From Thermodesulfovibrionales bacterium (GTDB lineage: Bacteria > Nitrospirota > Thermodesulfovibrionia > Thermodesulfovibrionales > SM23-35): DNA of 64,000 nt. The stretch covers positions 256,001 to 320,000 of the forward strand of contig CAVQRT010000007.1 of NCBI GenBank assembly GCA_963715195.1. Direction: 5' to 3'. A program made the position numbers. This document shows positions 21,001-27,000 of the stretch, in pieces. Position 1 is the first letter of the stretch. Every line of letters begins with the position of its first letter.

Positions 21001-24000
21001 GACATGCGGGTAAGGCGGGCTATTACCCATGCAATTAATAAAAATGACATCATCGCGGGGGTATTGCTCGGATACGGAACCCCCTGCACGGGGCCCTTTC
21101 CACCTGAATCCTGGGCCTATAATCCGAAAGTTAAAGACCTTGCATATGATCCTGATCTTTCAATAAAACTTTTGGGAGAGGCAGGCTGGAAATCAGGCAA
21201 AAACGGTACTCTCGAAAAGAATGGGAAACCATTTGAATTTACAGTTATTACCAATCAGGGCAATGAAGCGCGTCTCAAGACAGCTCAGATAATCAAGGAA
21301 AGCCTGAGAAAGATCGGGATCAGCATGAACATTAAGGTCCTCGAGTGGCAGGCAATGCTCCATGAATTCATCGACAAGAAACGGTTTGAAGCGATTATCA
21401 TGGGTTGGGGTCTGTCACGGGATCCTGATATGTATGATATCTGGCACTCTTCCAAGACAAAGGAGGGTGAGTTCAATTTTATTTCATACAAAAATACTGA
21501 AGTTGATCGTCTTCTGCTCGAGGGGCGTCGTACCTTTGATCACGGAAAGAGAACAGAGATTTACCACAGAATTCATGAAATACTTGCCGAAGAACAGCCG
21601 TATACTTTTCTCTATGTGCCCGATGCCCTGCCGGTTCTCCACAAAAGATTTAAAGGTGTTGAAAAAGCCCCGATCGGAATCTGGCATGATTTCATTCACT
21701 GGAAGGTCCCGAAAAACAGCATCGAGTGGTACAACTGAATGCCGATCATCCAGGTGGAAAATCTCGTCAAGAAATTCGGCAAAATTACTGCCGTCGATAC
21801 CATATCCTTCGACGTTGAGGAAGGCACGATCTTCGGATTTCTCGGTCCGAACGGAGCCGGAAAGACCACCACGATCAGTATCCTTTGCACCCTCCTCTCC
21901 CCGACTTCGGGCAGAACACTCATCGCAGGGTATGACTGTATGAAAGACTCCTCAAAGGTGAGGAATGCTATCGGCATTGTTTTTCAGGATACAACACTCG
22001 ATAAGGACCTCACCGCGTACGAGAACCTGATCTTTCATGCCTATCTGTACAGTGTTCCAAAAACAGAGATGAAAGAGCGGGTTCATGATGTCCTGAATTT
22101 TGTCGATCTCTATGACCGAAGAAACGATCTGGTCAAAAAGTTCTCCGGTGGCATGAAACGGAGGCTCGAAGTTGCCCGGGGACTGCTGCACAGGCCGAGA
22201 GTGCTCTTCCTGGATGAACCTACCCTCGGCCTCGACCCGCAAAGCAGAACGAATCTCTGGGAATTCATTACCGGGCTTCCCGGGAAACACAACGTCACCA
22301 TCTTCATGACTACTCACTACATGGAGGAAGCTGAGGTTTGCGACAGGATTGCAATCATAGATCACGGGAAAATCATTGCGATGGACACGCCCGATGAGCT
22401 GAAAAAAACAGTAGGAGGCGATGTCGTCTCCATAACGACTACGGACAATGAAAGCGCCAGATACGATATAGAACATGCGTTCCGCATGAACGTTGACGAA
22501 AAAGAAAATGCACTCTACATGACTTGCAGCAGGGGAGACACCTGTATTCCGGAATTGATAAGAACTCTGGGTGAAAGGGTTCTCTCGGTGAGAATTCAGA
22601 GGCCAACCCTGAACGATGTCTTTCTGAAACTCACCGGCAAGTCAATACGGGAGATCGAATCTTCCGGGAATGACTCGGTGCGCGAATCTGTCAGGGCATA
22701 CAGAAGGAGAAAATGAAAAGAACGGGTTCGATGGTACGAGGATTCAAGGGTTCAAATGCTCTTGGAAACTATTTTCACATCACTGGGATCCTTGAATCCT
22801 TGACCTCTCGGTTCCTTCACGGGCTATGGAACTGAACGCTATTTACGTTATTGTTGCACGGGAATTCAAAAAATTCATCCGGGAAAAGAGCCGCCTGATC
22901 TCTGCGATAGCACGGCCCGTCCTGTGGCTTTTCATCGTTGGAGCAGGGTTATCGAGGCTCGTTCCGCGCGATACCGGCGTGCCCTACACACAGTTCATTT
23001 TCCCCGGCATCATCGGCATGACAATCCTCTTCAGTTCGATCTTTTCATCCATATCGATCATATGGGACAAGGAATTCGGGTTCATGAAGGAGATCCTTGT
23101 TGCTCCCGTCTCCCGTCTCTCGATCGTCGTGGGAAAAGCATTGAGCGGGACCATCGTTTCAACGATTCAGGCCGTCATCATTCTTGCCCTCTTCCCCTTT
23201 CTCGGATTCAAACTCACCCTGATACAGGTTATATCGATTGTCTTCATCTGTGCTTCACTGTCTTTCTGCATTTCTGCGTTCGGCATTGTTCTCGCAACGT
23301 TCTATGACAGCTACGAGAGTTTCAGTGTCATCATGAACTTCATTATCATGCCGATGTTCTTCCTGTCAGGCGCGATGTATCCGGTTAAGCTCCTTCCGGA
23401 CATTCTGAAGGTTGTTGCAAAAATAAATCCCCTCACCTATGGAATTGATGCGCTAAAACACGTGATCTTTCCCCATAGCATAGGATCTATGGGACCCGAT
23501 TTCTCTCTGCTCACAAATGCGGCGGTAATCGTTCTCACGTCACTGGTATTTGTTTTTGTTGCAGGAAAAGCATTTGAAAGGAAACAGTAACCGATATTTC
23601 CCTTCCCATGAAAAAATGGAAATGATAAACTATTGAACCGCGGGTGAATGACAATGATGCCATTTTGTCTCATAGCGAAAACGATATCGGACGCATGGTT
23701 CCAGCTCATCTTTAATCTGTTTGATAAGGCATATTCACAGAATATTCAGAAAGGTTCCTTTGAAAACGAACAGTACCGCCTTCAGTATCCGGGCATTGCA
23801 GTCTTTATTGAACATCCATCGACTGATATCGTGCCGACCATCCCCCCCGGTCTCGGGATTCCCGCTCCGACGACCATGGAATACATTGAAGACTATTTTG
23901 CGAATTACCTGATGAACCCGGAACCGGGAGAAAATGAAACATATACCTATGCAGGCAGAATTCAACATCCGATGCCGGATGGCGGTTCGCAGCTTGAGCG

Positions 24001-27000
24001 AGTTGTGGATATGCTCCGGAGCACGCCGCTTACCAATCAGGCGGTCGTCGAAATCGCAACTCCTGAAGATCTCGACATCTGTTGCGGCAAGGACGGCAAG
24101 CTTGATCCCCCGTGCCTGAGACTGCTTGATTTTAAAGTGATACCATTGGACGATGCTTTCCTTCTGACCGTCAGTGTTTATTTCCGGTCATGGGACCTCT
24201 GGGCAGGGTTTCCGACAAACCTCGGCGGCATTGAACTCCTCAAGCAGTATGTGGCATCTGAAGCCTCACTGCAGAACGGGCCGATGTATGCATACAGTGC
24301 GGGTGCACATATCTATGGCTACCAGGAAGAAATCGCCCGTTTACGAACCCTCAGGAGAAAAAAATAACCTTGACGCAATGTTGACATTATCTGAATATAA
24401 GTGCTATTTTTTTATAGTAAACTTAAAGGAGTATTGATTGCATCATTGACCGCACATGTCGTCATATGCGGTTTTTTTTATGCATGATTCCTGGATCACC
24501 GACCTTTGAAGATTACATTATATGAGCATGTCCGTCACGCGTATCGATAAACTGAAGCCTCTCACCATAGGTTCATTAACGGCAAAGCTCCCCATAATCC
24601 AGGGAGGGATGGGTATCGGGATTTCTCTGTCCGGGCTTGCTTCAGCAGTGGCTAATGAAGGCGGTATAGGAGTTATCGCAACAGCCGGGATCGGGATGAG
24701 CGAACCTGATTTCTTTAAGAATTCCTTCGAAGCAAATCTCAGGGCTTTGCGAAAAGAGATACGAAAAGCGAGGGAATTATCAAAAGGGATTCTCGGAGTT
24801 AATATCATGGTGGCTTTATCAGATTTTGCCGACCTCGTAAGAGCTGCAATTGAGGAGGGCATAGATATTATTTTTTCCGGAGCCGGACTGCCGCTCAATC
24901 TTCCCCAATTCCTGCCGGAAAAAGCCCGGACAACAATCGCCCCAATCGTATCCTCTGCAAGAGCAGCCGCACTCATCGCAAAAAAATGGTCAGAGAAATA
25001 CGGCCGCCTGCCGGATGCAGTTGTGGTGGAAGGACCCAAAGCAGGAGGCCATCTCGGGTTTAAAGAAGAAATGATTCATGATCCTGCATATTCTCTGGAG
25101 AAACTCGTTACGGAGGTAATTCAGGCAATGCACCCCTTTGAAGAAAGATACGGGAAATCAATTCCCGTCATAGCAGCCGGAGGAATTTATACCGGACAGG
25201 ATATCTTCCGGTTTTTTCAGTTGGGGGCATCCGGTGTCCAGATGGCAACACGGTTTGTTACCACGCATGAATGCGATGCATCTCTTGATTTTAAACAGAC
25301 ATATATCGATTCAAAAAAAGAGGATATGACGATTATCAAAAGCCCGGTAGGAATGCCCGGGAGGGCCATTAAAAATACCTTCCTCGAAGAAGTCAGTCAG
25401 GGGAAGAGGAAACCGTTTAAATGCCCTTACCATTGCCTGAAAACGTGTGATTACAAGAACAGTCCCTATTGCATTACCCTCGCTCTGATGAACGCAAAGA
25501 AGGGGAATTTATCACAGGGTTTTGCATTTGCCGGGGAAAACGCATACAGGGCAACTGGTATTACTTCCGTAAAGGAATTAATAGAGACCTTAAAAAGGGA
25601 ATATGCTGAAGCAGCCGGCTAAGGCTTCATGAGGATGCATCGACGGGAAACCGGATGGTAAATGTCGTTCCTTTTCCTTCTTCGCTCTTCACCGATATAG
25701 TGCCTTTGTGATCCTGAATGATCTTGAGCGCAAAGGTGAGTCCGAGTCCAGGACCATAGACCTTCGAAGTTACCATCGGATCGAAGATATTCTTGATTTT
25801 TTCCTGAGCGATGCCCTTTCCGGTATCTGAAATTTGCAGCTCCAGGTTATCGCTGTTCACCCTGCTCAGAATATTCAGCGTCTGTGCCCCGTTTTCCATT
25901 GCTTCCAGCGCATTTTTAATAAGATTGCAGAACGCCCGCTTCAGGAGTTTTTTGTCCGCGTTTATCAGAGGAATGCCCTCCTGAAGATCGGTTTCGACAT
26001 GTACTGCCTTCTGCACAATATCCTGTTTGAAGACAGTCAGGGAGTCCCGGACAACCTCATTGATGTCCGACGGTTCTTTGATCGATATCGAAATTGATTT
26101 CAGCTCGATCAGCTGCTTGATCATACTCTCGAGAACTGCGACATCCTCGATGATATACTGCAAATATTTCCTGTTCGGGTCATCTTCCTCCAGCTTGTTG
26201 AATACCTTGCGGGCAAACCCTCCAACTGATGTAAGCGGATTTCTGATCTCGTGTGCAACCTGTTCCATCATCTGCTCGAGGGCCCCGGATCTCTTCTTCT
26301 TCGACCTTTTTCTGATGGGTTGCCTTTATCGAGAGCAGAGACCTGATCCGCGCAGAGAGTTCCTTGTAGTCAAAAGGCTTTGCCATATAATCATCAGCAC
26401 CGATGTCAAGACCTTTGACTTTATGTTCGACTTCACCTTTTGCCGTAAGCATGAGAATCGGGATATACCTCGTTTTTTCATCCGCCTTGAGTCTCTGACA
26501 GACTTCATAGCCGTCTATTTTCGGCATCATAATGTCAAGGACGATCAGATCGGGATCATACTCAGGAACCTTCTTGAGCGCCTCTTCGCCGTTGTAAGCC
26601 TCTGCCGTGTCGTATCCTTCAGCCCGGAATCTCTTTTTCAGCAGTTCCACAGTATCTTCAGCGTCATCGACAATCAGAATCTTACTCGTGTTCTCCACCT
26701 AAGATGCTCTCCCGCTTGCCCCGGATAAAAGATCTGATCTGATCAGGTAATTCACGAATATTGACTGGTTTAGAGATATATCCTTCGAATCCTGCCACTA
26801 TGACTTTTTCACGGTCTCCTTTCATTGCATGGGCAGTAAAAGCCACTATCGGGATGTCCTGGAATTCCTCCATGCCTTTCAGGCGTTTCGCAACCTCATA
26901 ACCATCCAGTTTCGGGAGTGAGATATCCAGCAGTATCAGGTCAGGCTTTTCTGCAACCGCCTTTTCTACGGCCTCCTCACCATCTTCAGCTTCAACCGTA

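Follow-up and report, generated by a model that had tools for sequence, protein, structure and literature searches.

Two routes to dTMP are textbook knowledge, that of ThyA, which is paired with a dihydrofolate reductase, and that of ThyX, which does not need one. Within the ThyA fold, T4 gp42, SPO1 gp29 and RB69 gp48 do not take hydride from folate according to the available sections of PMC6400193 and PMC13326640, which also give the rule that an acidic residue at position 143 denotes a hydroxymethylase or a flavin hydroxylase. The dihydrofolate reductase gap in many bacteria has been noted since at least 2007, and ThyX organisms without DHFR are held to require an unidentified dihydrofolate reductase all the same (PMC1971073, in the part available). 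For the order Thermodesulfovibrionales, the accessible text of PMC11974145 reports thyA in 81 of 226 genomes, only four of these with folA, and reads this as folate (tetrahydrofolate) auxotrophy; the pattern of thyA without folA is already published in that source, and the statement in the genome-wide survey's note that there were no papers has to be withdrawn.

The window analysed here, a stretch of 64,000 nucleotides from a member of this order, contains a real gene on the forward strand at 23648..24367. It encodes a short, divergent ThyA of 239 amino acids, as the note had described it, with a Pfam PF00303 match of 44.8 bits (cut-off 24.3) and an AlphaFold model (pLDDT 96) with the thymidylate synthase fold; the start is ambiguous, as Met3 or Met4 may be the true one. 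The best PDB sequence match has an E of 5.5e-7, bearing out the claim that none reaches 1e-8, and the protein falls below the cut-offs of the canonical models TIGR03284 (32.8 bits against 108.35) and PRK01827 (at most 36 bits against at least 325). The label “methanogen type” does not hold, however, since TIGR03283 scores only 66-83 bits in five of five genomes against a cut-off of 174.55 which two controls pass, and 90-110 bits for three distant members of the clade. Similarly, the family profile reaches classical thymidylate synthases at 2.8e-19, not only at 5e-8 as reported earlier; it scores SPO1 gp29 at 62.8 bits and E. coli ThyA at 57.2, whilst sequence profiles place RB69 gp48 below canonical ThyA. 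In the tree the clade is the sister of methanogen-type ThyA (FastTree support 0.998) and the nearest relatives of the order's copies from outside the order are viral; it is a phage-shared sister clade of the methanogen type, and not a member of TIGR03283. Of 34 long relatives scanned, many carry inteins, one is fused to thymidine kinase and others have unnamed extensions; none has a reductase fused to it, and a weak search for longer forms was also empty. Promoter and terminator counts at the gene were at chance level.

Residues were counted over 71 family members, the rows being pre-selected on the RS.D motif. The alignment confirms the conserved core noted by the survey: Asp153-Pro-Pro-Cys156 (24104..24115, forward strand, as are all the features that follow) holds the catalytic Cys; Arg180-Ser-Trp-Asp183 (24185..24196) corresponds to R166-S167-C168-D169 of E. 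coli, with Arg and Asp in 71/71 of the rows so selected; Asn191 (24218..24220; 70/71) is Asn177, the residue specifying dUMP and not dCMP; and His221-x-Tyr223 (24308..24316) is H207/Y209. As the equivalent of Asp169 (Asp183) is kept, the D169N signature of flavin hydroxylases (PMC13326640, available part) is absent.

Elsewhere in the pocket the enzyme departs from canonical ThyA. Asp153 lies at the Leu143 position, where Asp is a hydroxymethylase-type signature; it is found in 80/80 of the closest loci, 70/82 viral and 55/71 distant members, against Leu in 78/80 canonical viral ThyA. This position is acidic in all hydroxymethylases and flavin hydroxylases compared here, being Asp in T4 gp42 and SPO1 gp29 and Glu in RB69 gp48. 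Tyr83 (23894..23896; 67/71) aligns, profile to sequence and not on structure, with Glu60 of T4 gp42, described as the folate-activating residue in the available text of PMC6400193, and hence with Glu58 of E. coli; the same place holds Phe in the flavin-dependent RB69 gp48 and Tyr in the methanogen-type PhiF1. Of the folate-pocket set Glu58/Trp80/Trp83, the Glu maps to Tyr83 only via T4 gp42, the direct E. coli alignment being unreliable here, and this stretch has no conserved Trp. Asn130-Gln131 (24035..24040; 71/71 and 64/71) stands in the place of the phosphate-binding Arg126/Arg127, a pair kept in E. coli ThyA, T4 gp42, RB69 gp48 and PhiF1 and of which SPO1 gp29 retains the first Arg. In Tyr99-Thr-Tyr101 (23942..23950; both Tyr 71/71), Tyr101 aligns with E. 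coli Tyr94 and Tyr99 with T4 gp42 Ser94, whilst the family-specific Gly36-Ser37 (23753..23758; 70/71 and 69/71) falls, by sequence alignment only, in the loop of E. coli Arg21. The chain stops 16 residues past His221-x-Tyr223, near E. coli residue 225, and the C-terminal lid (E. coli 222-264) is missing. With Asp at Leu143, no lid and no Arg126/127, the active site appears from its sequence to lack the canonical hydride-transfer design. The literature covered, mostly without subscription journals, contained no assay of this clade and no application to it of the position-143 rule, which adds apparently new residue-level evidence for the view that folate is not the reductant.

Structure comparison aligned residues 14-235 of the model with 1-221 of E. 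coli ThyA. The best solved fold was the FAD-bound phage enzyme AfhB (9iqu, Z 23.5, rmsd 2.5, 209 aligned; 9iqc, Z 23.0), followed by MilA (21.4) and classical ThyA (at most 20.0); thymidylate synthase folds gave Z of 18-23.5 and the first unrelated chain 5.2, whilst the top Foldseek match was E. coli ThyA. The ranking should be considered with caution, as a shared short, lid-less build may be the sole reason for the higher Z of AfhB and MilA (16-21% identity).

The distribution of the gene was followed in 151 genomes of the order. Short thyA is present in 66, with one further weak match to another form, and ThyX in 72, so that 64/66 carriers are without ThyX and 70/72 ThyX genomes without short thyA; 15 have neither. 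The mutual exclusion reported earlier largely holds; two genomes possess both, and the gene is not in two pieces in either: G026 has one open frame of 354 residues with an insertion (55% identical) and in G068 both genes are intact. Damaged copies occur in two carriers without ThyX, G034 (one stop) and G061 (split). In the source genome short thyA is the only ThyA-family ORF and ThyX (PF02511, Thy1) gave no match at E up to 1; neither FolA nor thymidine kinase was found. A FolA candidate on contig C30 (27% tblastn match) was rejected, lying antisense to a large unrelated gene. Across the order, in agreement with the note, DHFR_1 exceeded its cut-off in 0/151 genomes (three sub-threshold matches), with 10/14 controls positive. 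This absence characterises the order as a whole and is not tied to short ThyA: the ThyX genomes lack FolA too and, outside the order, FolA occurs in 11/12 short-thyA carriers of the related family f19 against 38/52 non-carriers (Fisher p 0.27, kin not independent).

The slot between panB and cooC holds thyX in three genomes (G268, G285, G305) and short thyA in five others (G201, G250, G303, G294, G002) and in 4/80 of the closest loci; this shared slot makes it very probable that short ThyA supplies dTMP. Frameshifted thyX genes beside intact short thyA in G285 and G305 were set aside as proof of replacement, since both assemblies carry indels elsewhere and G305 also contains an intact second thyX. 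On the genomic evidence we are highly confident that short ThyA acts alone as the de novo dTMP synthase of the cell and takes the place of ThyX as a single gene. The absence of a partner gene moving with short thyA, the thymidine-kinase fusion, the many inteins, the genomic setting of the viral copies and the complementarity with ThyX are further observations in support of this role.

Viral copies have replication genes around them, and 8/80 viral loci include dCMP deaminase. No folA was found within 6 kb in 80 viral short-thyA loci, against 24/80 canonical viral ThyA loci, nor in 50 whole viral records carrying short thyA, although the phages in this comparison have different hosts and their loci cannot be counted as independent. 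No conserved neighbour names a reductase in the 80 closest, 80 viral and 80 metagenome loci or in 17 wide regions, just as the survey had found. A downstream FabK/NMO-like flavoprotein gene was discarded as a partner, as it lies near short thyA in only 3/80 loci. Five metagenome loci have, close to short thyA, a FolP extended at its N-terminus, a form that corresponds to the H. pylori-type reductase.

The source genome possesses folE, folK, folP and folC with no recognised reductase, from which it follows that the order needs an unrecognised dihydrofolate reductase anyway; the point that ThyX genomes share this need is agreed. There is no FolM candidate, the only short-chain reductase in the genome being FabG-like, as had been stated. 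The FolP-fused reductase was found in 0/151 order genomes by a search without a positive control, DfrB in 0/5 with no control over the cut-off, and DmrX over the cut-off in 0/5, matched only by ferredoxin parts. RibD_C is present in 140/151 genomes, with an extra copy in 1/66 carriers, and nitroreductases in 5/5. The MtrA and DUF4346 parts of a methyl-corrinoid route were not found in the source genome, and methanopterin was rejected as its marker TIGR00144 occurs in 0/5 genomes (4/14 controls positive).

Our preferred reading, put forward tentatively, is that folate gives only the methylene, that an outside donor such as reduced flavin gives the hydride, and that no dihydrofolate is produced. 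Cys156 would add to C6 of dUMP, the methylene donor would be CH2-tetrahydrofolate as in all folate-using members, and tetrahydrofolate would depart unoxidised because the pocket is hydroxymethylase-like. The exocyclic methylene would then be reduced by the outside donor, most plausibly reduced flavin, either free or bound loosely, occupying the cofactor site once it is empty. If no dihydrofolate is formed, FolA is not needed for the dTMP step, and a small unrecognised reductase would complete de novo folate synthesis as in ThyX genomes. Of the survey's two alternatives, that folate is not the reductant or that an unrecognised reductase exists, both stand and Asp143 with the lost lid speaks for the first, but the reductase would be needed regardless. 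The AfhB-like fold, the aromatic residue that replaces Glu58/60 here as in RB69 gp48, the viral loci without folA and the negative searches for recognised reductases point the same way. By extension, this might be a third class of thymidylate synthase, with a ThyA fold, methylene-only use of folate and hydride from reduced flavin or another donor, carried by phages among anaerobic bacteria and exchanged one-to-one with ThyX; we regard this as possible and no firmer than that. Methanogen-type enzymes carry the same signature and may use the same chemistry.

Certain points count against an outside donor: the retained Asp169, the fact that flavin use is only predicted, FolA in the f19 carriers and the FolP-extension neighbours. 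The need for a reductase in any case also removes the need for new chemistry, and with the invariant Tyr99, Tyr83 and Trp182 a dry pocket fit for normal hydride transfer could have been restored. Ordinary ThyA chemistry in such a rebuilt pocket is nearly as likely. Dihydrofolate would then be recycled by a host enzyme not yet recognised, which might be a nitroreductase, an Fe-S flavoprotein or the reductase domain of RibD, and which would also serve de novo synthesis in ThyX genomes, where PMC1971073, in its available part, requires one. The retained catalytic core, the folate genes without a recognised reductase and the wide occurrence of nitroreductases and RibD_C are consistent with this, the demand for dihydrofolate reduction is modest at 1.51 million T per genome copy, and, as stated in the accessible part of PMC13408713, a member of the order can be cultivated on its own and supernatants of sulfate reducers feed a folate auxotroph. 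However, it leaves the near-invariant Asp143, the lost lid and the aromatic side chain in the Glu58 position unexplained, no conserved neighbour offers a candidate, the viral copies travel without folA, and the enrichment of FolA in f19 carriers is not significant.

Less probable, and in our view unlikely, is that short ThyA is a dUMP hydroxymethylase. It shares the D143/D169/N177 set with SPO1 gp29, a dUMP hydroxymethylase which its profile scores above E. coli ThyA, and its nearest outside relatives are viral; Asp145 of T4 gp42 serves to activate the attacking water (PMC6400193, available part), and from such enzymes the folate leaves as tetrahydrofolate and DHFR is not required (PMC5175136). 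Against this, the Ser/Thr of the S-x-Y signature is an invariant Tyr (SPO1 is also without it) and Glu60 is absent. The variant in which hmdUMP is reduced to dTMP by a second, unrecognised host enzyme is improbable, as no second gene moves with short thyA. The variant in which hmdUMP enters DNA, giving chromosomes with 5-hydroxymethyluracil instead of thymine, is very unlikely: such DNA defeats long-read base calling, yet two of the closest loci lie on single contigs of 2.3 and 3.6 Mb. Moreover, methanogen-type enzymes share the acidic residue, yet dTMP forms in Methanosarcina extracts (PMC9931769).

A canonical ThyA in a tetrahydrofolate auxotroph that takes up reduced folate supplied by CPR bacteria or other neighbours, a view for which the available text of PMC11974145 offers thyA without folA in 77/81 genomes, a correlation in coverage with CPR bins and, in a host bin, homologues of ecfA, is very doubtful given the folate genes, the lack of an ECF substrate component over the cut-off in 151 genomes (4/14 controls positive), the roughly 1.5 million folates that canonical chemistry would have to import for each genome copy, one for every thymine, and the equal absence of FolA from ThyX genomes.

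Hundreds of sequences from anaerobes and phages belong to the short ThyA clade, and the methanogen enzymes are tied to it by kinship. If it spares folate there is a third mechanism of dTMP synthesis, and the basis for the CPR-fed auxotroph view (PMC11974145) is removed; an outside donor would make it a link in evolution towards the phage hydroxylases that depend on flavin. If the chemistry is ordinary, the genomes of this order offer a strong starting point for finding the dihydrofolate reductase missing from many bacteria.

Compared with the methanogen type (TIGR03283, with PhiF1 ORF59 as one example), short ThyA shares the lid-less build, Y-T-Y-G-x-R, the acidic residue three before Cys and Tyr at the Glu58 place; it differs in Asn-Gln for Arg-Arg, in its G-S and C-L-R motifs and in hosts without the methanopterin marker. 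Unlike the methanogen enzymes, it should use ordinary folate. Canonical E. coli ThyA (EC 2.1.1.45) has the same fold and catalytic core and probably the same product, but is 17-20% identical, with Leu143, Arg126/127 and the lid, and short ThyA is not tied to folA. AfhB of phage HY126, near-identical in sequence to RB69 gp48, demonstrates a thymidylate synthase fold holding flavin, and is the best structural match, with an acidic 143 and an aromatic residue in a similar local stretch at the Glu58 place; at 16% identity, it carries D169N and N177D where D169 and N177 are kept here, and it hydroxylates dCMP with O2, modifying phage DNA. With SPO1 gp29 (dUMP), T4 gp42 (dCMP) and MilA (CMP) there is a common Asp three residues before Cys and no sealing lid at the thymidylate synthase position, and the Ser/Thr-x-Tyr partner motif is absent from SPO1 gp29 as it is here; short ThyA lacks Glu58/60 and both phosphate arginines, however, and is genomically a ThyX replacement, not a DNA-modification or antibiotic gene. 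ThyX itself is unrelated in sequence and fold but serves in the same role and in several genomes occupies the slot that short thyA has elsewhere, and if our preferred reading is true the two would share the same folate-sparing logic.

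The short ThyA of the window (23648-24367, forward strand, 239 aa) lies between an ABC permease gene and, directly downstream, a FabK/NMO-like flavoprotein gene (24522-25622). It matches Pfam PF00303 at 44.8 bits (cut-off 24.3), passes none of the NCBIfam thymidylate-synthase models and has its top PDB sequence match at 5.5e-7, in keeping with the report of no PDB sequence at E<=1e-8 in the genome-wide survey's note. The same note had called the enzyme methanogen type; TIGR03283 is the best NCBIfam model, but it scores 66.7 against a cut-off of 174.55 and the label cannot be kept. 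The purified methanogen enzyme is said to carry out partial reactions only. Within the ThyA superfamily the short ThyA represents an undescribed variant; its 80 closest loci show 74-89% identity. The window's own genome, G000 (completeness 97.8%, contamination 6.6%), holds no second ThyA-family ORF and no ThyX, so that the gene is, in line with the note, its only thymidylate-synthase candidate; neither FolA nor thymidine kinase was found there. Genes for ribD, folB and a trimeric dUTPase were unmatched with the queries used, and a dCMP-deaminase-like ORF, queD and tmk are present. As this genome has gaps (ribD, missing here, is present in 140 of 151 sampled genomes of the order), absence is argued from many genomes.

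Among these 151 genomes, the short ThyA is found in 66, ThyX in 72, both in 2 and neither in 15. The proposed exclusion of ThyX thus holds nearly throughout but is broken by G068, in which both genes are intact, and the copy in G026, thought to be in two pieces, is one 354-aa frame with an insertion (55% identity). The absence of FolA from the order stands, with DHFR_1 over its cut-off in 0 of 151 genomes and 10 of 14 controls positive. No canonical ThyA is seen in the order, since PF00303 matches never exceed 53 bits. Six of the 15 genomes without short ThyA and ThyX carry a third ThyA form, with frames of 483-540 aa, as their sole thymidylate-synthase candidate, and nine show none. This form, in genome family f4, is a fusion of MtrA-like, TS and DUF4346 parts of about 480-540 aa (by Pfam in the 2 scanned of the 6 genomes), with Asn at the place of E. 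coli Asp169 and an adjoining ParB-CE domain gene; it lies at L042:1252-2739 (G073), L044:694-2142 (G003) and L045:700-2142 (G016), and other genomes with it are G062, G093, G103, G139 and G147. G016 has a further 214-aa TS-fold gene directly after dnaE (L043:1456-2100), with Ile at position 143 and the Arg-Arg pair absent. In f19, a family of 64 genomes from another part of the phylum, 12 genomes have short ThyA (2 of them partial), 51 have ThyX and 49 have FolA; carriers of the short ThyA have FolA in 11 of 12 cases and non-carriers in 38 of 52 (p 0.27), thus FolA follows lineage and not this enzyme.

The phyletic puzzle of thyA without folA in the order is already in print, contrary to the earlier report of no papers: thyA in 81 of 226 genomes and folA in 4 are given in a portion of PMC11974145, which accounts for the pattern by folate cross-feeding and, in the text consulted, holds no discussion of the enzyme type. 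Many bacteria are without any known DHFR, one thyA-positive case being listed in a passage of PMC1971073, and archaeal ThyA biochemistry is scarce, with dTMP demonstrated in extracts only, according to sections of PMC9931769 and PMC9012536.

The replacement of ThyX by the short ThyA as a housekeeping swap is real and well-supported. A slot flanked by panB and a cooC-like gene holds thyX in G268, G285 and G305, and short thyA in G201, G250, G303, G294 and G002 as well as in 4 of the 80 closest loci. Of those 80 loci, which may overlap with the numbered genomes, 14 have panB near short thyA. In the window, the cooC-like gene (30504-31271), which flanks thyX or thyA in relatives, lies 6 kb on from the short thyA, set apart by a signalling cluster. 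The FabK/NMO-like gene is near short thyA in 3 of 80 loci, and short thyA has no co-moving gene. The thyX of the slot is frameshifted in G285 (L409:2355-3082) and G305 (L410:1531-2268), both with an intact short thyA, which may reflect decay or assembly error. We are confident that the short ThyA supplies dTMP; against this, G034 and G061 carry damaged copies without ThyX, possibly assembly errors.

Viral contigs yielded 245 relatives with identity up to 69%, their thyA neighbouring polymerase, RecA, primase and ribonucleotide reductase genes, and dCMP deaminase in 8 of 80 loci. In a FastTree phylogeny of 95 sequences, with few outgroups and a root without test, viral sequences branch off one after another as sisters to the copies from Nitrospirota (support 0.94), the f19 copies nest within those of the order (0.93), and the family (0.93) is sister to the methanogen-type PhiF1 protein plus the fusion form (0.998). 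In one distant member (P0196) the enzyme is joined to thymidine kinase, inteins interrupt at least a dozen members, P0138, P0162, P0167 and P0171 included, at more than one site, and P0201 (498 aa) has a long N-terminal part resembling a degenerate second TS copy before an intact one. Within 6 kb, folA accompanies canonical viral thyA in 24 of 80 loci versus 0 of 80 for the short type, by a search profile iterated on canonical matches; by Pfam, folA was found in none of 50 whole viral records with short-type thyA (50 of the 80 loci taken; 13 records at least 90% complete).

The fold, the conserved residues, the distribution and the sharing of the slot are established for the short ThyA; we infer that its substrate is dUMP and its end product dTMP. 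The carbon donor would be CH2-tetrahydrofolate, because Asp183 is kept and methanopterin is absent (its synthesis was found in 0 of 5 genomes). The hydride might, speculatively, come from an outside donor, probably reduced flavin, instead of the folate, which we favour tentatively and at rather less than an even chance. Residues were counted in 71 diverse full-length members, picked from 151 proteins by length and the Cys and RS.D motifs; C156, R180-S-W-D183, N191 and H221-x-Y223 are kept in this set pre-selected on Cys and RS.D. Judged by sequence, Asn191 predicts dUMP as substrate, Asn at this place (E. coli 177) being predictive of dUMP specificity in an excerpt of PMC13326640. Asn130-Gln131 replace Arg126/Arg127 (Asn 71/71, Gln 64/71), a G36-S37 motif, Arg44, Glu97, Tyr99 and Arg158 are near-invariant and new to the family, and the chain ends before the C-terminal lid of E. 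coli ThyA. The active site speaks for a folate-sparing mechanism, though at no more than an even chance.

Ranking close to the outside donor is canonical ThyA chemistry served by an unrecognised reductase, a possibility that we hold at about one third. G000 apparently synthesises folate, since folE, folK (two), folP, folC, folD, glyA and metF are present, and it needs some means of reducing it. FolM was not found, the one short-chain reductase being FabG, in keeping with the note; DfrB and DmrX were each found in 0 of 5 genomes, FolP with an N-terminal extension in 0 of 151, and a second RibD_C protein occurred in only 1 of 66 carriers of the short ThyA. Nitroreductases and RibD are open candidates, and another is the 673-aa Fe-S flavoprotein of a G000 folate cluster (C3:94565-102813) that also encodes a 5-formyl-THF cyclo-ligase-like protein, folE, folD, metV-like, purD and metF. 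Five Omnitrophota-like metagenome contigs (L350, L351, L357, L360, L362) carry, a few kb from short-type thyA, a FolP extended at its N-terminus by a conserved stretch of 130 aa in which Pfam names no domain; it may be the H. pylori-type pterin reductase. Genes for folE2 (9 of 80 loci) and a queD-like protein (7 of 80) adjoin short-type thyA on the opposite strand in L389, L390 and related metagenome loci of one bacterial group.

Position 143, three residues before the Cys, is a further part of the rebuilt active site. Parts of PMC6400193 and PMC13326640 describe this position as a switch, Leu excluding water for hydride transfer and Asp/Glu marking hydroxymethylases, with the D145N variant of T4 gp42 inactive. 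It is Asp in 80/80 closest, 70/82 viral and 60/80 metagenome loci (19 not parsed), and Leu in 78/80 canonical viral ThyA; the reference alignment has D in T4 gp42 and SPO1 gp29, E in RB69 gp48 and the PhiF1 protein, and L in E. coli ThyA. The literature searched held no assay of the clade and no application of this rule to it. That the enzyme hydroxymethylates, either as the first of two steps or to yield DNA containing hmU, is unlikely. Folate import is very improbable, and no ECF substrate component exceeded its cut-off in the 151 genomes.

The AlphaFold model of the short ThyA (pLDDT 96) is matched best in VIA-align by AfhB (9iqu, Z 23.5; 9iqc, Z 23.0; rmsd 2.5; 209-210 residues aligned), then MilA (21.4) and classical ThyA (20.0 or less); Foldseek differs, its top rank going to E. 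coli ThyA and its third to MilA. AfhB is an FAD-bound dCMP hydroxylase, according to a section of PMC13326640 and to PDB titles, and is nearly identical in sequence to RB69 gp48. Tyr83 (67/71) aligns with Glu60 of T4 gp42, the folate-activating residue according to a passage of PMC6400193, in a stretch where the E. coli alignment is unreliable and the match is at sequence level only. The flavin-dependent RB69 gp48 has Phe where the short ThyA has Tyr83, and the flavin hydroxylase marks D169N and N177D are both absent from the short ThyA.
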